64,000 nucleotides of DNA from Vulcanimicrobiota bacterium (GTDB lineage: Bacteria; Vulcanimicrobiota; Vulcanimicrobiia; Vulcanimicrobiales; Vulcanimicrobiaceae), in contig PLCF01000085.1 of the NCBI GenBank assembly GCA_003135555.1, positions 88,587-152,586 on the forward strand, written 5' to 3'. The position numbers and the translations under genes were made by a program. Below the pieces are notes generated by a model. It searched no databases and was not told the DNA's origin. It saw only the letters and a program-made list of their open reading frames with translations. Shown piece after piece: positions 2,779 to 23,731 of this stretch. Numbering within the stretch: position 1 is the stretch's first letter; each line of letters begins with the position of its first letter.

Positions 2779-3117
2779 GTGGACCTGACCGTTGCAGGTG
2801 GCACGAAGTCCGGAGGCTGCACGCATGCGAAGACCCAGGCTCTAGGCCGTGCCAAAGCCGATTTAGGAAAGGGTCGCATCTCCCATCACGATGGCGCGAT
2901 GTTGACCGGGATCGTTATCGTCGCTGAGGTGCCGTCGCTGCGACTTGCGACCAGTGAAGTCTGCAAGGTCGCTTGGCCGACCGGGACGGTCCAATCCCTT
3001 CGGGGGACCTATCTAGCCACTGAGTCGAAACCACTTCAAGCGGACAATTTGGTGAACAAGTCTCGCGCTAAGTATATGAAAAAACTCTGGCACTTGTGGC
3101 CGGATCATCGGATTTAG
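2779..3117 (+). CDS. Hypothetical ORF or degraded gene remnant in lower-GC islet
   Basis: 112-aa ORF with no recognisable motif; atypical composition. Confidence 0.25.
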   Translation: MDLTVAGGTKSGGCTHAKTQALGRAKADLGKGRISHHDGAMLTGIVIVAEVPSLRLATSEVCKVAWPTGTVQSLRGTYLATESKPLQADNLVNKSRAKYMKKLWHLWPDHRI

Positions 3118-18622: not shown

Positions 18623-19210
18623 ATGGACGGACTGGAATGGACGGCCAGCGCGATGCGTGCGGCTCGGGCGCAGCTCGACCTCGCCACGCACAACCTGGCC
18701 AACGCCTCGACCGACGGTTACCGTAAGGCTGTCGCCCACGTCGCGCTGACCGCGCGCGGCCTCGCGGTCGCGTCGCAGGTCACCGACGAACAGGGCGCGG
18801 TCCGCACCACCGGGCGGCGCTTCGATCTCACGCTGCTCGGCGCGGGTGCGTTCCGGGTCGGCCAGGGCTCGACGCGCGAGGGCGCGTTCACCCGCAGTCG
18901 CGACGGCTTGCTGACCGACGACCGCGGGCGCGCTTTGCACGGCGCGTGCGGCGCGTTGCGCGTCTCCGCGGAAGCGACGATCGCCGCCGACGGCAGCGTG
19001 CTCGACCACGGCCGCGTCGTCGACCGCATCCCGCTCCCGGCGGGAACGCACGTGCTCCCCGGCGCGCTCGAGTCGAGCACTGTCAACCCGATCGATGAGA
19101 CGCTGGCGATTCTGGGCGCGCAGCGCGCCTTCGAGACGGCGCAGCGGACCTTGCTCGCGATCGATGCGACCCGCGAAAAGTCGGCCAACGACGTGGCGCG
19201 CGTCCAATGA
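18623..19210 (+). CDS. flgF: Flagellar basal-body rod protein, FlgF-like
   Basis: LDLATHNLANASTDGY, TGRRFDL, TREGAF, GALESSTVN..AQRAFE. Confidence 0.75.
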   Translation: MDGLEWTASAMRAARAQLDLATHNLANASTDGYRKAVAHVALTARGLAVASQVTDEQGAVRTTGRRFDLTLLGAGAFRVGQGSTREGAFTRSRDGLLTDDRGRALHGACGALRVSAEATIAADGSVLDHGRVVDRIPLPAGTHVLPGALESSTVNPIDETLAILGAQRAFETAQRTLLAIDATREKSANDVARVQ

Positions 19211-19932
19211 ACCGCGCCATGTTCGCGGCGGCGAGCGGGATGGCGGCGCAGCAGACGCAGCTCGAGATCGTCGCCGACAACCTCGCCAATGCCGACGTCG
19301 CCGGTTTCAAGGGTGCCAGCGCGACCTTCGCCGACGTGCGCGCCGGCGCGCTGGGGTTGGGGACGACCAGCGTCGGCAAGCACGCCGTGTTCGCGCAAGG
19401 AAAGCTCGTGCGCAGCGGCGGCCCGTTCGATCTGGCGATCGACGGACCGGGCTTCTTCGCTGTGGAGCGCCACGGCGCGCGCGGTTACACCCGCAACGGC
19501 GAGTTCGCTCGCGACGCCGACGGAACGCTGCGCAATAGTGCCGGCTGGGCGCTCTCGGGCGTGCGCATCCCCGCCGGCGCGCTGGCTGCGCGGGTCGAGC
19601 GCGACGGGCGCGTCGTGATCGACACCGCGGCTGCGAAGGGACGCACCGTTGCGCATTTGCGCCTAGCGGCCTTTGCTTCGCCTGAGGCATTGCGCCCGCT
19701 CGGTGCGACGCTGTTCGCGGCGACCGAGGGATCGGGACGCGCGCGCCTGTTCGCGCCCGGCGCGCACGATGGTCCGTCGATCGCGTTCGGGATGCTCGAA
19801 CGCTCCAACGTCTCGATCATCGAGGCGATGATGCAGATCCTCGGCGCGCAGCGCGCGTACGAGGCGAACGCCAAAGGGGTGCAAGCCGCCGATGAGATGC
19901 TGCGGATCGCCAACAACCTCCACCGCGGCTGA
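19207..19932 (+). CDS. flgG: Flagellar basal-body rod protein, FlgG-like
   Basis: AASGM..QQTQLEIVADNLANAD..GFK, DLAIDGPGFF, YTRNGEF, LERSNVS..AQRAYEANAK. Confidence 0.85.
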   Translation: MNRAMFAAASGMAAQQTQLEIVADNLANADVAGFKGASATFADVRAGALGLGTTSVGKHAVFAQGKLVRSGGPFDLAIDGPGFFAVERHGARGYTRNGEFARDADGTLRNSAGWALSGVRIPAGALAARVERDGRVVIDTAAAKGRTVAHLRLAAFASPEALRPLGATLFAATEGSGRARLFAPGAHDGPSIAFGMLERSNVSIIEAMMQILGAQRAYEANAKGVQAADEMLRIANNLHRG

Positions 19933-19957
19933 GCCCGCGGCCATCCGCGCGCAGGAT

Positions 19958-20077
19958 GTGGTCAACGCGGTCCTGTTCCGCGAGATTCTCAAGCCGCTGG
20001 CGCAGGGGCTCGGCCCGCTTGCGGAGGTCGCGCTGGGGGCGGTCGCGGACGAGCTGTTCGTGCGCCCGCGCCGATGA
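19958..20077 (+). CDS. Very small protein, possibly a minimal FlgJ-like rod-binding protein
   Basis: VNAVLFREILKPLAQGLG between flgG and fliA; ATGA overlap with fliA; start uncertain. Confidence 0.4.
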   Translation: MVNAVLFREILKPLAQGLGPLAEVALGAVADELFVRPRR

Positions 20078-20766
20078 GCGTCGACACACGTGAGGCGCGC
20101 ATTCGGGAGCTGCTGCCGCTGGTGCGGCAGGTGGCGCGGCGCGTCCGCCGGATGGTTCCCGGCGCCGAGGTCGACGAGCTCGTCGGCGACGGTAACGTCG
20201 GACTGATCCGCGCCGTCGACAGCTTCGATCCGGCTCGCGGCGTTCCGCTCGAGCAGTACGCGCGCCGCGTGATCCTGGGTGCCATGCTCAACGGCGTGCG
20301 CCGGATGGATCCGGTCGCGGAGCGAATGCGCCGCACGATCCGCATCGCCGAGCGAGCGCGCTACGCGCTCGCGCATCGGCTGGGGACGCTTCCGACGTAC
20401 AACGCGATGGAAGCGCAGGTGCCGGCGCTCGCGCGGGCGCGCACCGAGGCGCATCGCCGCGTCCCGCTCTCGCTCGACGCGCCGTTGCCGATCGGCGAGC
20501 GGCTCGCGCCCGATGCGAGCGGTGACCCGCAAGCGGTCGTCGCCGCAGCGGTCGAGCGCGAACGGTTGCGCGGCGCGATCGCGGCGCTGCCGCAGCGCCA
20601 GCGCCACATCGTGCTCGCGCACTATTTCTGCGAGCGGCCGCTGCGCGAGCTGGTGGCGCCGCTCCACGTCTCGCCGCAGCGCGTCTCGCAGTTGCACCTG
20701 CTCGCGGTCGCGCGGCTGCGCGCTGCACTGACGGATGTCACGCTGCGCGCGAGCTCGGGCCCGTGA
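20074..20766 (+). CDS. fliA: Sigma-70 family factor, FliA/WhiG (sigma-28)-like
   Basis: DELVGDGNVGLIRAVDSFDPARG, RVILGAMLNGVRRMD, SLDAP, region 4 VSPQRVSQLH. Confidence 0.82.
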   Translation: MSVDTREARIRELLPLVRQVARRVRRMVPGAEVDELVGDGNVGLIRAVDSFDPARGVPLEQYARRVILGAMLNGVRRMDPVAERMRRTIRIAERARYALAHRLGTLPTYNAMEAQVPALARARTEAHRRVPLSLDAPLPIGERLAPDASGDPQAVVAAAVERERLRGAIAALPQRQRHIVLAHYFCERPLRELVAPLHVSPQRVSQLHLLAVARLRAALTDVTLRASSGP

Positions 20767-21062
20767 AGGACGCCGCCGCCCCCGGTCCCCCGCGCGAGCC
20801 GTTGCTCGCGGCGGCAACCCCGGCCGTCCTCACCGCCCCGTTGGGGCCGTATGCGGACGTCGAGCCGGCGTCGTTGCCGCGCGACCACCCCGCCTGGCCA
20901 CGCGACGTGCTCGCGGTCTCGGCGCGCGTGCGCGCCGTCATTGCGCAGCTGCGTCCGGTCGTCGTGCGCGTGCTGTCGTTTTGGGACCACGCCGTCCGCG
21001 GCGTCACCGTCGGCGCCCGGCGCCTCGAGATCGACCCGAGCGGCTGCTATCGCCTGCGTTAA
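20763..21062 (+). CDS. Hypothetical protein (99 aa)
   Basis: GTGA overlap with fliA; no recognisable motif. Confidence 0.5.
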   Translation: MKDAAAPGPPREPLLAAATPAVLTAPLGPYADVEPASLPRDHPAWPRDVLAVSARVRAVIAQLRPVVVRVLSFWDHAVRGVTVGARRLEIDPSGCYRLR

Positions 21063-21155
21063 AGTCCGCTTCCCAAGCGAGGGCTGATATGGGCTAATCC
21101 CGACTGTTTTGAGGCAGTGGCTCATTTGCGCCACAAATCCGTTGGGAGATTCACC

Positions 21156-21293
21156 ATGACCACCATCCTGCTGGCTGCCGCCATCGTGGCGGGCCTGCTC
21201 TTGGGCGCCCCCGCGACCGGCGCCAACTCGGCGGCGACGAACACCCCAGCCTCGAGCAGCGATGCTCTTTCCGGAAACGGGCCTCCGGGATAG
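21156..21293 (+). CDS. Small secreted peptide MTTILLAAAIVAGLLLGAPATGANSAATNTPASSSDALSGNGPPG (45 aa)
   Basis: Translated by hand; GGGAGA RBS before ATG; hydrophobic signal-like N-half and polar Gly/Pro C-terminus; followed by a terminator. Confidence 0.8.
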   Translation: MTTILLAAAIVAGLLLGAPATGANSAATNTPASSSDALSGNGPPG

Positions 21294-21307
21294 CCTGTTC
21301 TAGGCAG

Positions 21308-21340
21308 GAGGAGGCGCCCGTGGTGGCGCCTCCTCTCTTT
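21308..21340 (+). terminator. Intrinsic terminator between the peptide gene and the TPR-LuxR gene
   Basis: Perfect 11-bp stem GAGGAGGCGCC/GGCGCCTCCTC, 6-nt loop, followed by TCTTT. Confidence 0.75.
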
Positions 21341-21347
21341 GGTCACC

Positions 21348-22904
21348 ATGCCCCGAGCTATTCGAGCCGAGCCGAAGCTGGAGCACGCCGTCACGGCGTT
21401 CGAGCAAGGCCGTTATGAAGAGGCCCGAGAGGTCGCGTCCCGATTAGCGGCGCGTCCAGGCGCGGTCGCGCTCGATGCGACGTTGCTAGCGGCGCGCGTC
21501 GACCTACGGCTGGGTGACGTCGCGGCGGTGATCGAGCGGCTCGAACCGCTGGCTCGCCGCTTGCCGCCCGACGTGACGGCGCAGACGTTGCTCGGTATCG
21601 CATTGTTCCGGCAGGGTGAGGAGTCGAGGGGTGCGCTTATGATCGAAAACGCGCATGCGGGCGCGCGCGATGCCGTGGGGCGATCCGAGGCCGCTTACTA
21701 CCGCGCCTGGGCCGCCTACGCGCAGCGCCGGCTCGACGACGCCGAACGCTGGATCGCCGAATCGCTCGACGACGCGCAGGGCGTCGTGTACGCACGCGGG
21801 CTCGCGCTGAGCGCGTGGGTGGTCGAGGCGCGTGGTGACTATCCCGGCGCGGCCCGCGCATTTCGGCTCGCGCTGGCCGCACTGCGCAGCGGCACCGAAC
21901 GCGACGACGAGCTCGTCGCGCGCATCCTGCACATGCTTGCGGTGTTCGCAGCCGAGCTTCCCGACGCGTCGCTCGCGGCGTACTTTCGGACCCAGCAGCA
22001 CGGGTTCGCGTGGCCGCCCAGCCGGGTCGACGACGCCTTTAACGCGCAGCTGCACTCGGGTTTGGCCTTCGTCAACGACGGCGACGCCGACGCCGCATTC
22101 GATGCGTTCGACGCGGCCGAAGGCGTCGCGGCGGAGCGCTCCGTGCTCGCCGCGCAGGCGCGGCTGGAGACGGCCGAGCTGTTTCGCGTGCTGGGCGAAG
22201 CGACCGCAGCGCGCCGCGCGATGCGTGCGGCGTCGCAGATGTTGCGCGCCGTCGCCTGGAACGAGGCCGGCATCGCGGAACACATGGGGCTGCTCGAGGC
22301 GACCTGCGTCGCGGCGCGCTTGGATCCGATGACGGCGTCGGAGTGGCTCGTTCGCTACGCGGCGCTCCCCAAGAACGATGTGAGTTGGCATGCGCTCACG
22401 GGCGACATGCGGGTCGCGGCGACCGAGCTGCACGCGCGGGGGATCGTCGAAGCCGCTTTGGGCCGCAAGAACGGCGTGGCGCGGCTGCATGAAGCATTCG
22501 CGCTGTGGCAGCGGCTCGGATACCGCCGGCGCGCCGCCTATGCCGCCGCCGATCTGGCCGCCGCCGGAGACACCGCGAGCGGGGATCGGATTGCCTCGCT
22601 GCTGGAAAAAGCGCCGCATCATCCGCTGCTCGCGCAGCGCCACGGCGGGGCCTCCGGCCTGCCGCACTCCGCGTCGGCCGCGCCGCGCGCGAACGCCTCG
22701 GCGGCGGAACGAAAGGTTCTCGAGGCGCTATGCGCGGGCTGGTCGGTTCGTCAGATGGCGCAGGAATGGGACCGCAGCGAGTTCACGATCCGTAACCACC
22801 TCAAACGCTTGTTCGCGAAGTACGGTGTGCGCAGCTCCGCGGCGCTGGTGGCCAAGGCGATGAGCGGCGGCGCCGCGGCACCGCCGCTGGAGCGCGTGCC
22901 CTAG
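21348..22904 (+). CDS. TPR-like helical-repeat protein with C-terminal LuxR HTH
   Basis: AFEQGRYEEA, AQTLLGIALFRQG, AAYYRAWAAYAQRRLDDA TPR-like helices; SAAERKVLEALCAGWSVRQMA..RSEFTIRNHLKRLFAKYGV HTH; no NTPase or receiver motif. Confidence 0.85.
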   Translation: MPRAIRAEPKLEHAVTAFEQGRYEEAREVASRLAARPGAVALDATLLAARVDLRLGDVAAVIERLEPLARRLPPDVTAQTLLGIALFRQGEESRGALMIENAHAGARDAVGRSEAAYYRAWAAYAQRRLDDAERWIAESLDDAQGVVYARGLALSAWVVEARGDYPGAARAFRLALAALRSGTERDDELVARILHMLAVFAAELPDASLAAYFRTQQHGFAWPPSRVDDAFNAQLHSGLAFVNDGDADAAFDAFDAAEGVAAERSVLAAQARLETAELFRVLGEATAARRAMRAASQMLRAVAWNEAGIAEHMGLLEATCVAARLDPMTASEWLVRYAALPKNDVSWHALTGDMRVAATELHARGIVEAALGRKNGVARLHEAFALWQRLGYRRRAAYAAADLAAAGDTASGDRIASLLEKAPHHPLLAQRHGGASGLPHSASAAPRANASAAERKVLEALCAGWSVRQMAQEWDRSEFTIRNHLKRLFAKYGVRSSAALVAKAMSGGAAAPPLERVP

Positions 22905-22915
22905 CCCTGTCGAGG

Positions 22916-23731
22916 TCAGGGGAGGTTCGCGACGATCCCTTCGATCATGCGAGCTACGTTCTCCGCGCTGCGCGCGGACGCTTCGAGAACCTCCTCGTGC
23001 GAGGTCGCCGCCCCGCTGCCGTGGACGTTGGTGATGAGCGAGAAGCCGACGACGTCGCGCCCCAACGCACGGGCGGCGATCGTTTCGAGGACCGTCGACA
23101 TACCGACCGCGTCGGCGCCGATCGTGCGCAGGTAGCGCGCCTCGGCCGGAGTCTCGTAGGCCGGCCCGACGAGTCCGGCATACACCCCCTCGCGCAACGT
23201 GATCGCGTACTCCGCCGCCATGTGGCGGGCCAGCTCGCGCAGGCGCGGCGCGTACGCGTCGACCATGTCGACGAAGCGTGCGTTCGCGCCCGTCAGTAGC
23301 TCCGGGCCGATCAGCGGGCTGGTACCGGTGAGGTTGAGCTGATCGGCGAGCAGCATCAAGTCGCCCGTCTGGTAGTCGGGATTGACGCCGCCCGCGGCGT
23401 TGGTCAGGACGAACGTGTGCGCGCCTGCGTGCGCCGCCGCCACCACGGGATAGACGACGTCGTCGGTGTCGCGCCCCTCGTAGAGGTGAAAGCGGCCGCT
23501 GAACGCGACGATGCGGCGCCCGTGCAAGACGCCGATGTGCGCTTCACCGGCGTGGCCCGCGACGCGCGCCTCCGGCATCCCGGCGATCTTCTTGTACGGG
23601 ACCGTGATGCCGCCGAGCCGCTCGCTCAACACCGCACCCAGCCCCGAACCCAGGACGATCGCGCAATCCAGCTCGCCGCCCGCTTTGTCGCGCAGGTACT
23701 CGGCCGCGATTTCGAGTCGCTTGCGTTTCAT
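22916..23731 (-). CDS. punA: Purine-nucleoside phosphorylase (trimeric type)
   Basis: VLGSGLG, GRFHLYEG, TNAAGG, GPAYETPAE, VGMSTVLE motifs. Confidence 0.94.
   Translation of the reverse strand: MKRKRLEIAAEYLRDKAGGELDCAIVLGSGLGAVLSERLGGITVPYKKIAGMPEARVAGHAGEAHIGVLHGRRIVAFSGRFHLYEGRDTDDVVYPVVAAAHAGAHTFVLTNAAGGVNPDYQTGDLMLLADQLNLTGTSPLIGPELLTGANARFVDMVDAYAPRLRELARHMAAEYAITLREGVYAGLVGPAYETPAEARYLRTIGADAVGMSTVLETIAARALGRDVVGFSLITNVHGSGAATSHEEVLEASARSAENVARMIEGIVANLP

Follow-up and report, generated by a model that had tools for sequence, protein, structure and literature searches.

Peptide signalling via cytoplasmic TPR receptors is regarded as a hallmark of the Bacillota and of their mobile elements. 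We asked whether a locus from a Ca. Eremiobacterota MAG, in which a small open reading frame (sORF) precedes the gene of a TPR-LuxR regulator, belongs to a peptide signalling system of comparable design in this diderm candidate phylum, as the first-pass annotation of the DNA had proposed. The window, i.e. the whole stretch of DNA analysed, comprises 64,000 nucleotides. Similar pairs of a small gene and a regulator gene are found in many soil bacteria of this candidate phylum.

The sORF and its product

The sORF is located at positions 21156-21293 of the + strand (45 codons, ATG start and TAG stop) and codes for the putative pre-peptide P0001. A Shine-Dalgarno-like site, GGGAGA, is present at 21144-21149 (+), 6 nt 5' of the ATG. 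The earlier report of an unlisted small ORF with a ribosome-binding site was thus borne out, with a translation identical letter for letter to ours. P0001 is composed of a hydrophobic, signal-like N-terminus (approximately residues 1-23), assigned as a signal peptide by inspection, followed by a polar spacer and by the C-terminal unit L-S-G-N-G-P-P-G (residues 38-45; 21267-21290, +). The latter is conserved and is predicted to represent the core of the mature or recognised peptide. The exact 45-residue sequence was not found in a collection of 15 billion proteins, and a direct tblastn search of the first 30 loci with P0001 detected none of its relatives at E<=1e-5. The peptide family is detectable only by motif- and anatomy-based scans, which were run on the flanks of the regulator genes on both sides and both strands.

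Domain composition and predicted structure of the regulator

The gene of the regulator P0002 spans positions 21348-22904 (+) and encodes 518 residues from its ATG. An alternative in-frame TTG at 21339 would yield a 521-residue protein; the equivalent ATG is the start in all five full-length orthologues (5/5). Pfam analyses revealed a GerE/LuxR HTH signature (PF00196) at residues 451-502 (E = 3.7e-7, 30.1 bits for a cut-off of 23.5), sub-threshold TPR matches at the N-terminus, and no ATPase, receiver or autoinducer-binding domain at E<=1. The AlphaFold2 model (mean pLDDT 90.9, pTM 0.80) predicts an all-helical, TPR-like superhelical sensor domain at residues 9-418 (21372-22601, +), a disordered linker at residues 435-444 and a LuxR/GerE-type HTH DNA-binding domain at residues 446-506 (22683-22865, +). 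Pfam and AlphaFold2 therefore agree with the initial description of a 518-residue TPR-like protein with a C-terminal LuxR HTH and devoid of ATPase or receiver domains. As judged from its sequence, which harbours an HTH and lacks a signal sequence, P0002 is probably a cytoplasmic receptor.

The GerE/LuxR HTH was recovered in all 56 family members, with C462, G464, A471, R476, S477, T480 and N483 invariant in the 56 sequences. N-terminal to the HTH, E114, W157, R162, D186, D206, Y337 and R355 are likewise family-invariant. Most regulators among the best 150 of 550 family representatives are approximately 480-560 residues long. A search of the PDB with the family profile returned the DNA-binding domains of GerE, NarL, DevR and FixJ, and none of the Rap, NprR, PlcR, Rgg or AimR chains at E<=1. 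Similarly, no RRNPP-specific Pfam family was matched in P0002 (E<=1) or in the 56 family members (E<=0.01), and TPR_MalT had no matches in the latter at E<=0.01. The nearest language-model clusters, with a score of 0.92 that we treat as a lead only, are actinobacterial TPR proteins named 'ATPase AAA' and 'LuxR C-terminal-related'.

Comparisons of the P0002 model using VIA-align yielded Z scores of 19.3 for RapI (324 aligned residues), 17.0 for AimR, 15.3 for NprR and 16.6 for MalT domain III (1hz4; over 319 residues), with a phage Rap bound to its pheromone also among the structural matches. Generic and eukaryotic TPR proteins match the model equally well or better (Z up to 21.6), and the likeness of the modelled fold to RRNPP receptors is that of TPR folds in general. 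We count this generic likeness, combined with the lack of sequence similarity to RRNPP receptors, against a signalling function. Complex predictions of the TPR region (residues 1-430) with the pro-peptide (residues 16-45), run without controls, gave scores of 0.35, 0.03 and 0.13 for a mark of 0.32, which speak neither for binding nor against it.

Pairing of regulators with sORFs

To have homologues without adjacent peptide genes would have spoken against the proposed system, and we scanned the flanks of homologous regulators. The outcome did not refute it. A family sORF adjoins 5 of 6 regulators of the window's clade. Of the 52 non-redundant regulators flanked on each side by 400 nt or more, 33 are accompanied by a similar sORF at <=750 nt, one of which (L018) is dubious. 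Identical criteria applied to 3.57 Mb of the window's genome (G000) gave a background of 30 detections, or 0.0126 per 1500 nt. A G/P-rich motif is of low complexity for a genome of high G+C content, an objection which is met by a genome-wide control: G000 has 287 sORFs of 25-90 residues with a hydrophobic N-terminus, of which only 2 harbour G-[GSNA]-G-P in their last 16 residues, and both adjoin its only two family regulators. By these counts, the sORF-regulator pairing is far above chance, and P0001 does not represent a chance ORF.

A detectable adjacent sORF is lacking for 19 of the 52 regulators, including a subclade in which this is the case for 12 of 13 members. We count these regulators against the proposed peptide-receptor signalling. 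The gene order depends on the clade. Members of the window's clade have the sORF upstream and in the same orientation (5/6), while it is downstream and convergent in 21 of 25 and 5 of 9 loci of two other clades. The arrangement first described, a peptide gene directly before that of its receptor, is therefore valid for the window's clade but not for most others, where the sORF is downstream and convergent. The label 'locus 1' also implied further loci, but the window contains no second family member: the sole paralogue of P0002 in G000 is found on another contig, C90. A PAS-GGDEF-EAL gene is present beside the sORF of the latter and recurs in only 2 loci.

The pairs extend beyond this genome. 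Of 20 additional loci, taken from 19 other genera, 8 have a clear motif sORF, and the g2 regulator, from another genus, is preceded by an sORF that has a lipobox and contains a different 7-residue unit in triplicate. The pairs are conserved across loci whose regulators are 26-57% identical, and the family is expanded to up to 21 matches per genome. No match was obtained in G020, the only genome of the genus in the sample that consists of a single contig (99% complete). Flanking genes vary between loci, and conserved genes for modification, immunity or dedicated export are absent beside the pairs. By tblastn, no regulator homologues were found in phage and plasmid collections. As evidenced from sequence comparisons, the pairing is conserved and specific in dozens of divergent paralogues, drawn from many genera of one Eremiobacterota family.

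Anatomy of the precursors

Downstream of the hydrophobic N-terminus, the conserved core of the precursors is a C-terminal [S/T/N]-x-x-G-P motif. All 38 precursors share G42 and P43 but vary in their N-termini and middle parts, and L38, G42, P43, P44 and G45 are invariant in the 6 clade-A precursors. The motif predicted initially, D-x-x-x-G-x-G-P-P, has to be revised, since neither its Asp nor its second Pro is conserved; in 12 of the 38 precursors, the last G-P is not followed by another proline. At the DNA level, the third positions of the G-P-P-G codons vary synonymously among orthologues, with the residues fixed.

The initial proposal that the C-terminal ~10 residues may be the mature signal holds in that the C-terminal unit is conserved and often repeated, but the repeat unit is of 8-9 residues. 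Repeats occur in 8 of 38 precursors, and 3 of the 6 clade-A members have the unit in duplicate; copy numbers are two, three or seven, and one precursor among the 20 loci from other genera has 7 tandem 8-residue units ending with G-G-G-P. Peptide tails differ between regulator subclades and group by subclade on the tree.

Translation signals are present in most cases, with an SD-like 4-mer at -20 to -4 in 36 of 38 unique family sORFs, compared with 14.1% of all ATG triplets of the genome, and an ATG start in 34 of 38. Public data contain 59 related small proteins predicted by gene callers, and any name given to them is 'hypothetical'. The basic n-region typical of Sec signals is absent, with no K/R at residues 2-7 in any precursor (0/38), which leaves not only the route of export but also the topology uncertain. 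Many precursors harbour A-x-A-like sites after the hydrophobic core, and lipobox-like signals (L-A-G-C or L-A-C) occur in two more distant relatives, from loci L094 and L111.

Elements in the leader and intergenic regions

Two DNA elements of the locus are absent from the first-pass annotation. An 18-bp imperfect palindrome, or 5'-UTR hairpin, is found at 21117-21134 (+), just 5' of the Shine-Dalgarno-like site, and ends 21 nt before the sORF ATG. Its arms are separated by 2 nt and can pair at 7 of 8 positions, and equivalent palindromes occur at the same distance from the sORF in 4 of 5 other clade-A loci. It is a candidate operator for a LuxR-type HTH or a candidate RNA stem, and comparison of 39 sORF leaders supports a stem at this site. 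The IUPAC pattern RTNGCY-N6-[A/C]G[C/T]NAN, built post hoc from such sequences, is present in 15 of 39 sORF upstream regions, compared with 0.032 per 160 nt in the remainder of these loci; an earlier, stricter pattern matched 5 of 39 leaders only.

The second element, a G+C-rich hairpin (12 bp, 6-nt loop), is located at 21307-21336 (+), between the sORF stop codon and the regulator ATG. The 71-nt stretch that contains it has a computed folding energy of -36.6 kcal/mol (z -3.0), and a near-identical hairpin ends 3-12 nt 5' of the regulator ATG in 6 of 6 clade-A loci. It is possibly a terminator, an attenuator or a processing element; a clear U-tract is absent. A scan for consensus promoters and terminators found nothing relevant at the locus and did not call this hairpin, and Rfam had no matches over 20500-23500 at E<=1. 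GG-N10-GC-like elements are present 5' of some sORFs. Control of the sORFs by sigma-54 was considered and rejected because Sigma54_DBD is unmatched in G000, which is 84% complete.

Genomic context and supporting machinery

Neighbouring genes code for flagellar rod proteins, a sigma factor, a phosphorylase, iPGM and TIM, and no gene for a RiPP-type modification enzyme is present beside the locus of the window. The lineage is diderm, as had been assumed: an Omp85 homologue is encoded in the genome, and the outer membrane of a cultured relative is described as covered with LPS in the account of PMC9758169. G000 encodes 3 signal peptidases I and Opp/Dpp-type binding proteins (16 SBP_bac_5 matches, at least 11 of which are near full length). 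Three peat metatranscriptome contig sets, searched at 85% likeness, had nothing on the stretch and are silent on expression.

Proposed mechanism and alternative explanations

We propose that the sORF and the regulator probably form an RRNPP-like peptide-receptor signalling module with a different receptor family, present in up to 21 matches per genome. The signalling function put forward by the first-pass annotation is supported by the comparative data, from which we infer it. The 45-residue pre-peptide would be exported by means of its hydrophobic N-terminus, and proteolysis would release the C-terminal unit of ~8-9 residues, here ending with L-S-G-N-G-P-P-G. The peptide would build up extracellularly and then be re-imported, for which the numerous Opp/Dpp-type transporters are plausible candidates. 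Once inside the cell, it might bind to the concave side of the P0002 superhelix and alter the activity of the C-terminal LuxR-type HTH, the likely targets of which include the promoter or leader of the peptide gene itself, with its conserved palindrome. The diderm envelope would require an additional crossing of the outer membrane, outward and inward, which we count against this proposal.

Other explanations of the pairs deserve consideration. The peptide might be a secreted product without signalling function, e.g. an antimicrobial, an adhesive or a remotely modified precursor, whose gene is controlled by a TPR-LuxR regulator that senses another ligand. Pathway-specific LuxR regulators commonly adjoin small-peptide genes, and the G-P-P-G motif resembles collagen-like substrates of prolyl hydroxylases. 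However, the differing flanks lack the conserved accessory genes expected in that case, and the large number of matches per genome together with subclade-specific tails is the pattern of orthogonal pairs rather than of one effector and its regulator, making this explanation fairly unlikely. We also regard as unlikely that the small protein is a partner anchored in the membrane by its hydrophobic N-terminus as a transmembrane segment, the cytoplasmic G-P tail of which tethers or inhibits the regulator in the manner of an anti-activator, with neither export nor re-import. The cytoplasmic location of the receptor would suit such a partner, pairing and co-variation are compatible with any direct binding partner, and in the absence of K/R at residues 2-7 the topology is not fixed by the positive-inside rule. 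Nevertheless, many precursors have the A-x-A-like sites beyond the hydrophobic core, the lipobox-like signals of the two distant relatives imply export, the acidic or polar tails favour translocation, and short-spaced tandem units, up to 7 of them, better suit a cleavable polyprotein than a tether.

Two further explanations were considered. P-P-G is a stalling motif, and arrest peptides such as SecM and MifM are known; the sORF might be a cis-acting leader that combines a signal sequence with a P-P-G stall and the hairpin to control translation or transcription of the regulator gene, in the SecM or MifM manner or by sensing EF-P. Within the window's clade, the sORF immediately precedes the regulator gene in the same orientation, P-P-G is followed by the stop codon, and the conserved hairpin abuts the regulator ATG. 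However, the sORF is downstream and convergent in most clades, and action in cis on the regulator is therefore impossible there; moreover, 12 of the 38 precursors have no further proline behind the last G-P, and with internal unit copies, ribosomes would be arrested where this serves no purpose. This mechanism is thus disfavoured for the family as a whole and is compatible with the window's clade alone; overall, we judge it very unlikely. Finally, spurious ORFs are abundant in such G+C-rich DNA, with 90 ORFs of >=30 residues overlapping the 9 kb around the locus, and the exact sequence of P0001 is missing from the 15-billion-protein collection, so that the sORF might be a chance open frame. 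This extremely improbable explanation is refuted by the comparative data, namely cross-locus conservation, synonymous codon variation, SD sites, genome-wide specificity and the related called proteins.

Returning to the peptide-receptor module, a more far-reaching proposal, for which we consider the case evenly balanced, is that this Eremiobacterota family independently evolved peptide quorum sensing with TPR-LuxR receptors, G-P-core pheromones with variable specificity residues, derived from single or tandem pro-peptides, and as many as ~20 channels per genome. The receptor would possibly derive from an ATPase-less regulator of the MalT/LAL type, the channels would potentially be orthogonal, and 'orphan' receptors may eavesdrop. 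We found no description of TPR-LuxR and G-P peptide pairs in the literature searched. The peptide genes are mostly unannotated or labelled 'hypothetical', and standard annotation pipelines therefore miss the system. If the proposal is correct, RRNPP-style communication is not a speciality of the Bacillota, and an analogous, sequence-unrelated system in a diderm, largely uncultured phylum of soil and peat would indicate that this solution evolved more than once. It would also call for an explanation of the passage of short peptides through an outer membrane in both directions, and provide a testable handle on the social behaviour of Eremiobacterota by using synthetic 8-9-mers and purified receptors.

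Comparison with known systems

SecM and MifM act in cis on a downstream gene of their own transcript, whereas most sORFs of the present family are convergent with the regulator gene. In filamentous cyanobacteria, PatS and HetR provide a diderm case of a short peptide with a conserved C-terminal motif that acts on a cytoplasmic transcription factor. However, HetR belongs to neither the TPR nor the LuxR proteins, the action of PatS is between adjacent cells in a filament, and that system is not known to show paralogous expansion or tandem units of the present type.

P0002 has the four-helix GerE-type DNA-binding domain of the LuxR/GerE HTH superfamily. It shares the C-terminal position of this domain with AHL-type LuxR receptors and LuxR solos, and, as proposed here, ligand-controlled DNA binding. 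It differs from them by a 410-residue TPR superhelix in place of the autoinducer-binding domain and by its presumed ligand, a ribosomal peptide. The MalT/LAL (STAND) regulators similarly combine a TPR-like sensor with a C-terminal LuxR HTH, but they harbour an N-terminal NOD/AAA+ ATPase, while P0002 has none and its 518 residues are occupied by TPR helices from residue 9 onwards, up to the linker and the HTH. Furthermore, the ligand of MalT is a sugar, whereas that of P0002 is presumed to be a gene-encoded peptide.

The closest parallels are with the RRNPP(A) systems, for which we considered Rap/Phr, NprR/NprX, PlcR/PapR, PrgX, Rgg/SHP, ComR/ComS and AimR/AimP from Bacillota, phages and plasmids. 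RRNPP_detector, as its survey is outlined in PMC10075063, covered only Firmicutes and viruses. RRNPP(A) receptors have an N-terminal XRE-type HTH or a phosphatase effector function, unlike P0002 with its C-terminal GerE/LuxR HTH, and their hosts are Bacillota rather than a diderm candidate phylum. The present peptides have an invariant G-P core of their own, and their signal-like regions lack a basic n-region. In both cases, however, the module consists of two genes, coding for a cytoplasmic TPR-type receptor, here modelled and at the level of the generic fold, and for an adjacent pro-peptide, whose export is suggested here by sequence features and whose C-terminal part is the signal, as predicted for P0001. 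Same-strand, convergent and divergent gene arrangements all occur in Rgg/SHP systems, as they do here. The many paralogous pairs per genome are likewise common to both, with >25 RRNPP pairs in some Paenibacillus according to the account in PMC7425212. Lastly, the tandem duplication of the pheromone unit found in our precursors is also a feature of RRNPPA propeptides, as described in PMC11343458.

Genes of the locus and their surroundings

The 45-aa peptide put forward in the first-pass annotation is identical to the translation of positions 21156-21293 (+), and the ribosome-binding site claimed for this small ORF (sORF) was located as a GGGAGA sequence 6 nt 5' of its ATG. The next gene (21348-22904, +) codes for a 518-residue regulator described as harbouring a C-terminal LuxR-type HTH without ATPase or receiver domain. 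Pfam analyses bore this out: a GerE/LuxR HTH was found at residues 451-502 (E 3.7e-7), TPR matches are weak and restricted to the N-terminal part, and no ATPase, receiver or autoinducer-binding domain was detected. An NCBIfam search added nothing specific. A G+C-rich hairpin of 12 bp (21307-21336) lies between the two genes.

Flagellar rod genes (18623-19932), a gene for a sigma-70-family factor (20074-20766) and an ORF of 99 aa that matches no Pfam entry (20763-21062) directly precede the module, a context (18623-21062) that is not common to the orthologous loci examined. Genes for a phosphorylase, iPGM and TIM follow on the opposite strand. None of the neighbours of the module in the window resembles a peptide-modifying enzyme.

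Conserved pairing of sORF and regulator

The window's own genome (G000) codes for two members of the regulator family, namely the window's protein and a 33% identical paralogue on contig C90. Among 287 sORFs of 25-90 aa with a hydrophobic N-terminus in this genome, only two harbour G-[GSNA]-G-P within their last 16 residues, the window's and one located immediately 3' of the C90 paralogue, in convergent orientation. Orthologous regulators in other genomes of the genus are 46-55% identical to the window's. An upstream, same-strand sORF was found at all five full-length orthologues and at L007, a locus with a frameshifted regulator. The products of these orthologous sORFs have a hydrophobic N-terminus and end with L-[S/T]-x-x-G-P-P-G, immediately followed by the stop codon; in three of them the C-terminal, G-P-bearing segment of 8-9 residues, hereafter called the unit, is present twice. 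The motif codons vary between loci at synonymous positions.

The final collection was based on looser criteria: sORFs had to code for 22-100 aa, average a hydropathy of 1.6 or more over residues 3-16, have [GSNAT]-G-P among their last 22 residues and lie no farther than 750 nt from either end of the regulator gene. A motif sORF adjoins the regulator at 33 of the 52 non-redundant loci whose flanks both extend over 400 nt or more, one of the 33 (L018) resembling a false positive; six further loci were excluded for their short flanks, and four of them have a motif sORF. The same criteria yielded 30 detections in the 3.57-Mb G000 genome, a background of 0.0126 per 1500 nt. Among the 38 unique precursors, 34 start with ATG and 36 have an SD-like 4-mer at -20 to -4, as compared with 14.1% of all ATG triplets. 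The pairing, the synonymous codons and the SD sites exclude that the sORF is a chance ORF. At L058 (genome G013, contig C2) the peptide gene is frameshifted, with its N-terminus and motif tail in different frames, and at L007 (G003:C12) the match to the regulator is broken into three pieces. Both cases reflect either decay of the copies or errors of assembly.

The gene arrangement follows clades in a maximum-likelihood tree built from 56 regulators (quick search, SH-aLRT support). In the window's clade (6 rows, support 100), the sORF is upstream and on the same strand in 5 rows; it is downstream and convergent in 21 of 25 and in 5 of 9 rows of two other clades. In a 13-row subclade, only one row has an adjacent motif sORF. 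The regulators of this sORF-poor subclade (L020, L022, L030, L067, L069, L071, L072, L076, L081, L082, L086 and L087) could be 'orphan' receptors or have their peptide genes elsewhere. Peptide tails are similar inside small regulator subclades and different between them, and paralogues inside one genome have different tails. This pattern fits co-diversification of peptide and regulator, without proving binding, because neighbouring genes are inherited together.

Upstream of many convergent-clade regulators we identified by tblastn a small, divergent gene for a DUF1232 membrane protein (21 loci, duplicates included), such as that of the C90 paralogue (L096:1678-1965, -). Its product could act as a third component of the module or be a target of it. 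A PAS-GGDEF-EAL gene is found in the same locus (L096:4200-5990, -), 328 nt upstream of the paralogue's sORF and in the same orientation; L043 is the only other locus with an adjacent homologue.

Anatomy of the peptide precursors

The 38 unique precursors (alignment A5) range from 43 to 65 residues, with a median of 51. Their N-termini are hydrophobic and uncharged, with no Lys or Arg in residues 2-7 of any of them, which is atypical for Sec signal peptides. In many precursors an A-x-A-like site follows the hydrophobic core, then a variable polar spacer and the unit. G-P is invariant in the unit, and G-P-P is present in 26 precursors and absent from 12. The last G-P is at most 4 residues from the C-terminus in 23 of 38, the others having short extensions, and 8 of 38 harbour two or three copies of the unit. 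In another genus, the L098 sORF (G281:C219, oriented 2862-3080) codes for seven exact tandem 8-residue units ending with G-G-G-P, which start directly after a 15-residue hydrophobic N-terminus; this unit size agrees with the 8-9-residue repeat period found elsewhere. The sORF upstream of a more distant family member in another genus of the order (L094, G041:C11, 1501-1695) combines a lipobox-like signal with a different unit, which has 7 residues, ends with P-P-Y and is present three times. The principle of pairing thus extends beyond loci with the G-G-P motif. In another family of the class (L095), an ORF upstream of a distant regulator contains an internal S-G-G-G-P-V-G.

Distribution

A search with the single protein yielded matches (E<=1e-10) in 38 of 61 related genomes, among them 34 of the 36 in the genus. 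The highest number of regulator matches in one genome is 21, which is not a copy number. Of 301 genomes in the phylum, 173 match a profile of the regulator family (E<=1e-20). The rate is 170/206 in the window's taxonomic family, 1/3 and 1/22 in two other families and 0/69 in the remaining ones; by genus, it is 48/100. The unpublished genomes G245, G265, G273 and G275 enter these tallies only; unpublished G032 is the source of locus L023, whose peptide is also found in a public record (L044). G020 (single contig, 99% complete), the sole closed genome that the sample contains for the genus, has no member of the regulator family with either query, so not every genome of the genus has the system.

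A search of 1.84 billion cluster representatives retrieved 550 proteins at E<=1e-30; of the best 150, the majority have 480-560 residues, and one has 837. No regulator homologue was found in phage or plasmid collections. Public protein sets contain 59 related peptides (E<=0.01), all 'hypothetical' where named except for one Spy/CpxP chaperone label, and the window's own 45-aa sequence is absent from a 15-billion protein collection.

Predicted receptor fold and non-coding elements

In an AlphaFold2 model built from 56 family sequences (mean pLDDT 90.9, pTM 0.80), about 22 paired helices make up a TPR-like superhelix (residues 9-418), which a disordered linker connects to an HTH (446-506). The top structural matches are generic TPR superhelices, APC/C subunits and LGN (Z up to 21.6), and others include RapI (Z 19.3, 324 aligned residues), AimR (17.0 and 16.6), MalT domain III (16.6), a phage Rap with bound peptide (16.0) and NprR (15.3). 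Foldseek retrieved the phage phi3T Rap with its pheromone (TM 0.62, normalised to the target). The modelled fold is thus compatible with a peptide-receptor role and does not demonstrate kinship. The family profile retrieves only LuxR-type HTH domains and generic TPR proteins from the PDB. Language-model neighbours, a lead only, are TPR proteins of actinobacteria whose labels read ATPase or LuxR C-terminal-related, which hints at descent from a LAL/MalT-type ancestor with loss of the ATPase.

All six loci of the window's clade have a hairpin of nearly the same sequence between the two genes. The hairpin stops 3-12 nt 5' of the regulator ATG, no SD lies in between, and a clear U-tract is lacking; it might conceivably be an attenuator, a processing site or a stability element. 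A stem or palindrome immediately precedes the SD in every sORF leader. In a 39-leader alignment, which combines the window's clade, with its A+T-richer palindrome, and the G+C-rich stems of other clades, 72.3% of the cells of a helix of 8 pairs are paired, vs 61.7% in shuffles; the helix has a covariation score of 0.348 vs 0.174, with 0 of 500 shuffles reaching 0.348 and slid controls at or below 0.18. Of the 39 leaders, 15 contain an 18-bp palindrome pattern, vs a background of 0.032 per 160 nt, an enrichment that is overstated because the pattern was derived from the same sequences. Its distance from the ATG is clade-specific (about -40, -75 and -93). The recognition residues of the HTH do not vary within the family, so that a shared operator is to be expected, and the palindrome is the best candidate for it.

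Proposed mechanism and comparison with known systems

The cultured relative Vulcanimicrobium alpinus belongs to the Elarobacter clade and has a typical Gram-negative wall, with an outer membrane covered with LPS (PMC9758169). An Omp85 homologue is present in G000 (84% complete), and the lineage is therefore diderm. We propose that the pre-peptide would be exported via its hydrophobic N-terminus, the genome having three signal peptidase I genes, and that proteolysis would free the 8-9-residue units. Opp/Dpp-type systems, for which there are 16 SBP_bac_5 matches in G000, could take the peptide up; it would bind in the groove of the TPR superhelix and change how the LuxR HTH binds DNA, with feedback on the peptide gene among the effects. 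The three Peptidase_S26 genes are in tandem (G000:C66:116849-119233).

The pairing and the missing basic n-region would also be accounted for if the sORF product were a membrane-tethered partner of the regulator with its C-terminus inside, but the lipobox variants, A-x-A sites and tandem units fit poorly with such a tether, which we consider improbable. That the peptide is a secreted product merely regulated by the neighbouring TPR-LuxR protein is unlikely too, as this would leave the many distinct pairs per genome, devoid of accessory genes, without an account. A SecM-like arrest or leader peptide is compatible with the window's clade only; the convergent arrangement in other clades, the tails without P-P in 12 of 38 precursors and the internal unit copies contradict it, making it highly implausible.

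No description of the system was found in openly accessible articles, supplements aside, on RRNPP/quorum sensing, LuxR-TPR peptide pheromones, Eremiobacterota or Elarobacter. The words 'quorum' and 'LuxR' do not occur in the V. alpinus paper (PMC9758169), nor do LuxR, Actinobacteria, Gram-negative, phyla or MalT in the mBio 2022 paper on RRNPPA evolution (PMC9765709). With the RRNPP receptors of Bacillota, the family shares a generic TPR fold according to the model, but none of its 56 members matches an RRNPP-specific Pfam family (E<=0.01). With MalT, it shares a domain III-like TPR sensor, whereas MalT-specific Pfam families are likewise absent from the 56 members and the window's regulator lacks the ATPase. 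We rate the principle as already known, and the receptor family, the peptide family and the phylum as new.
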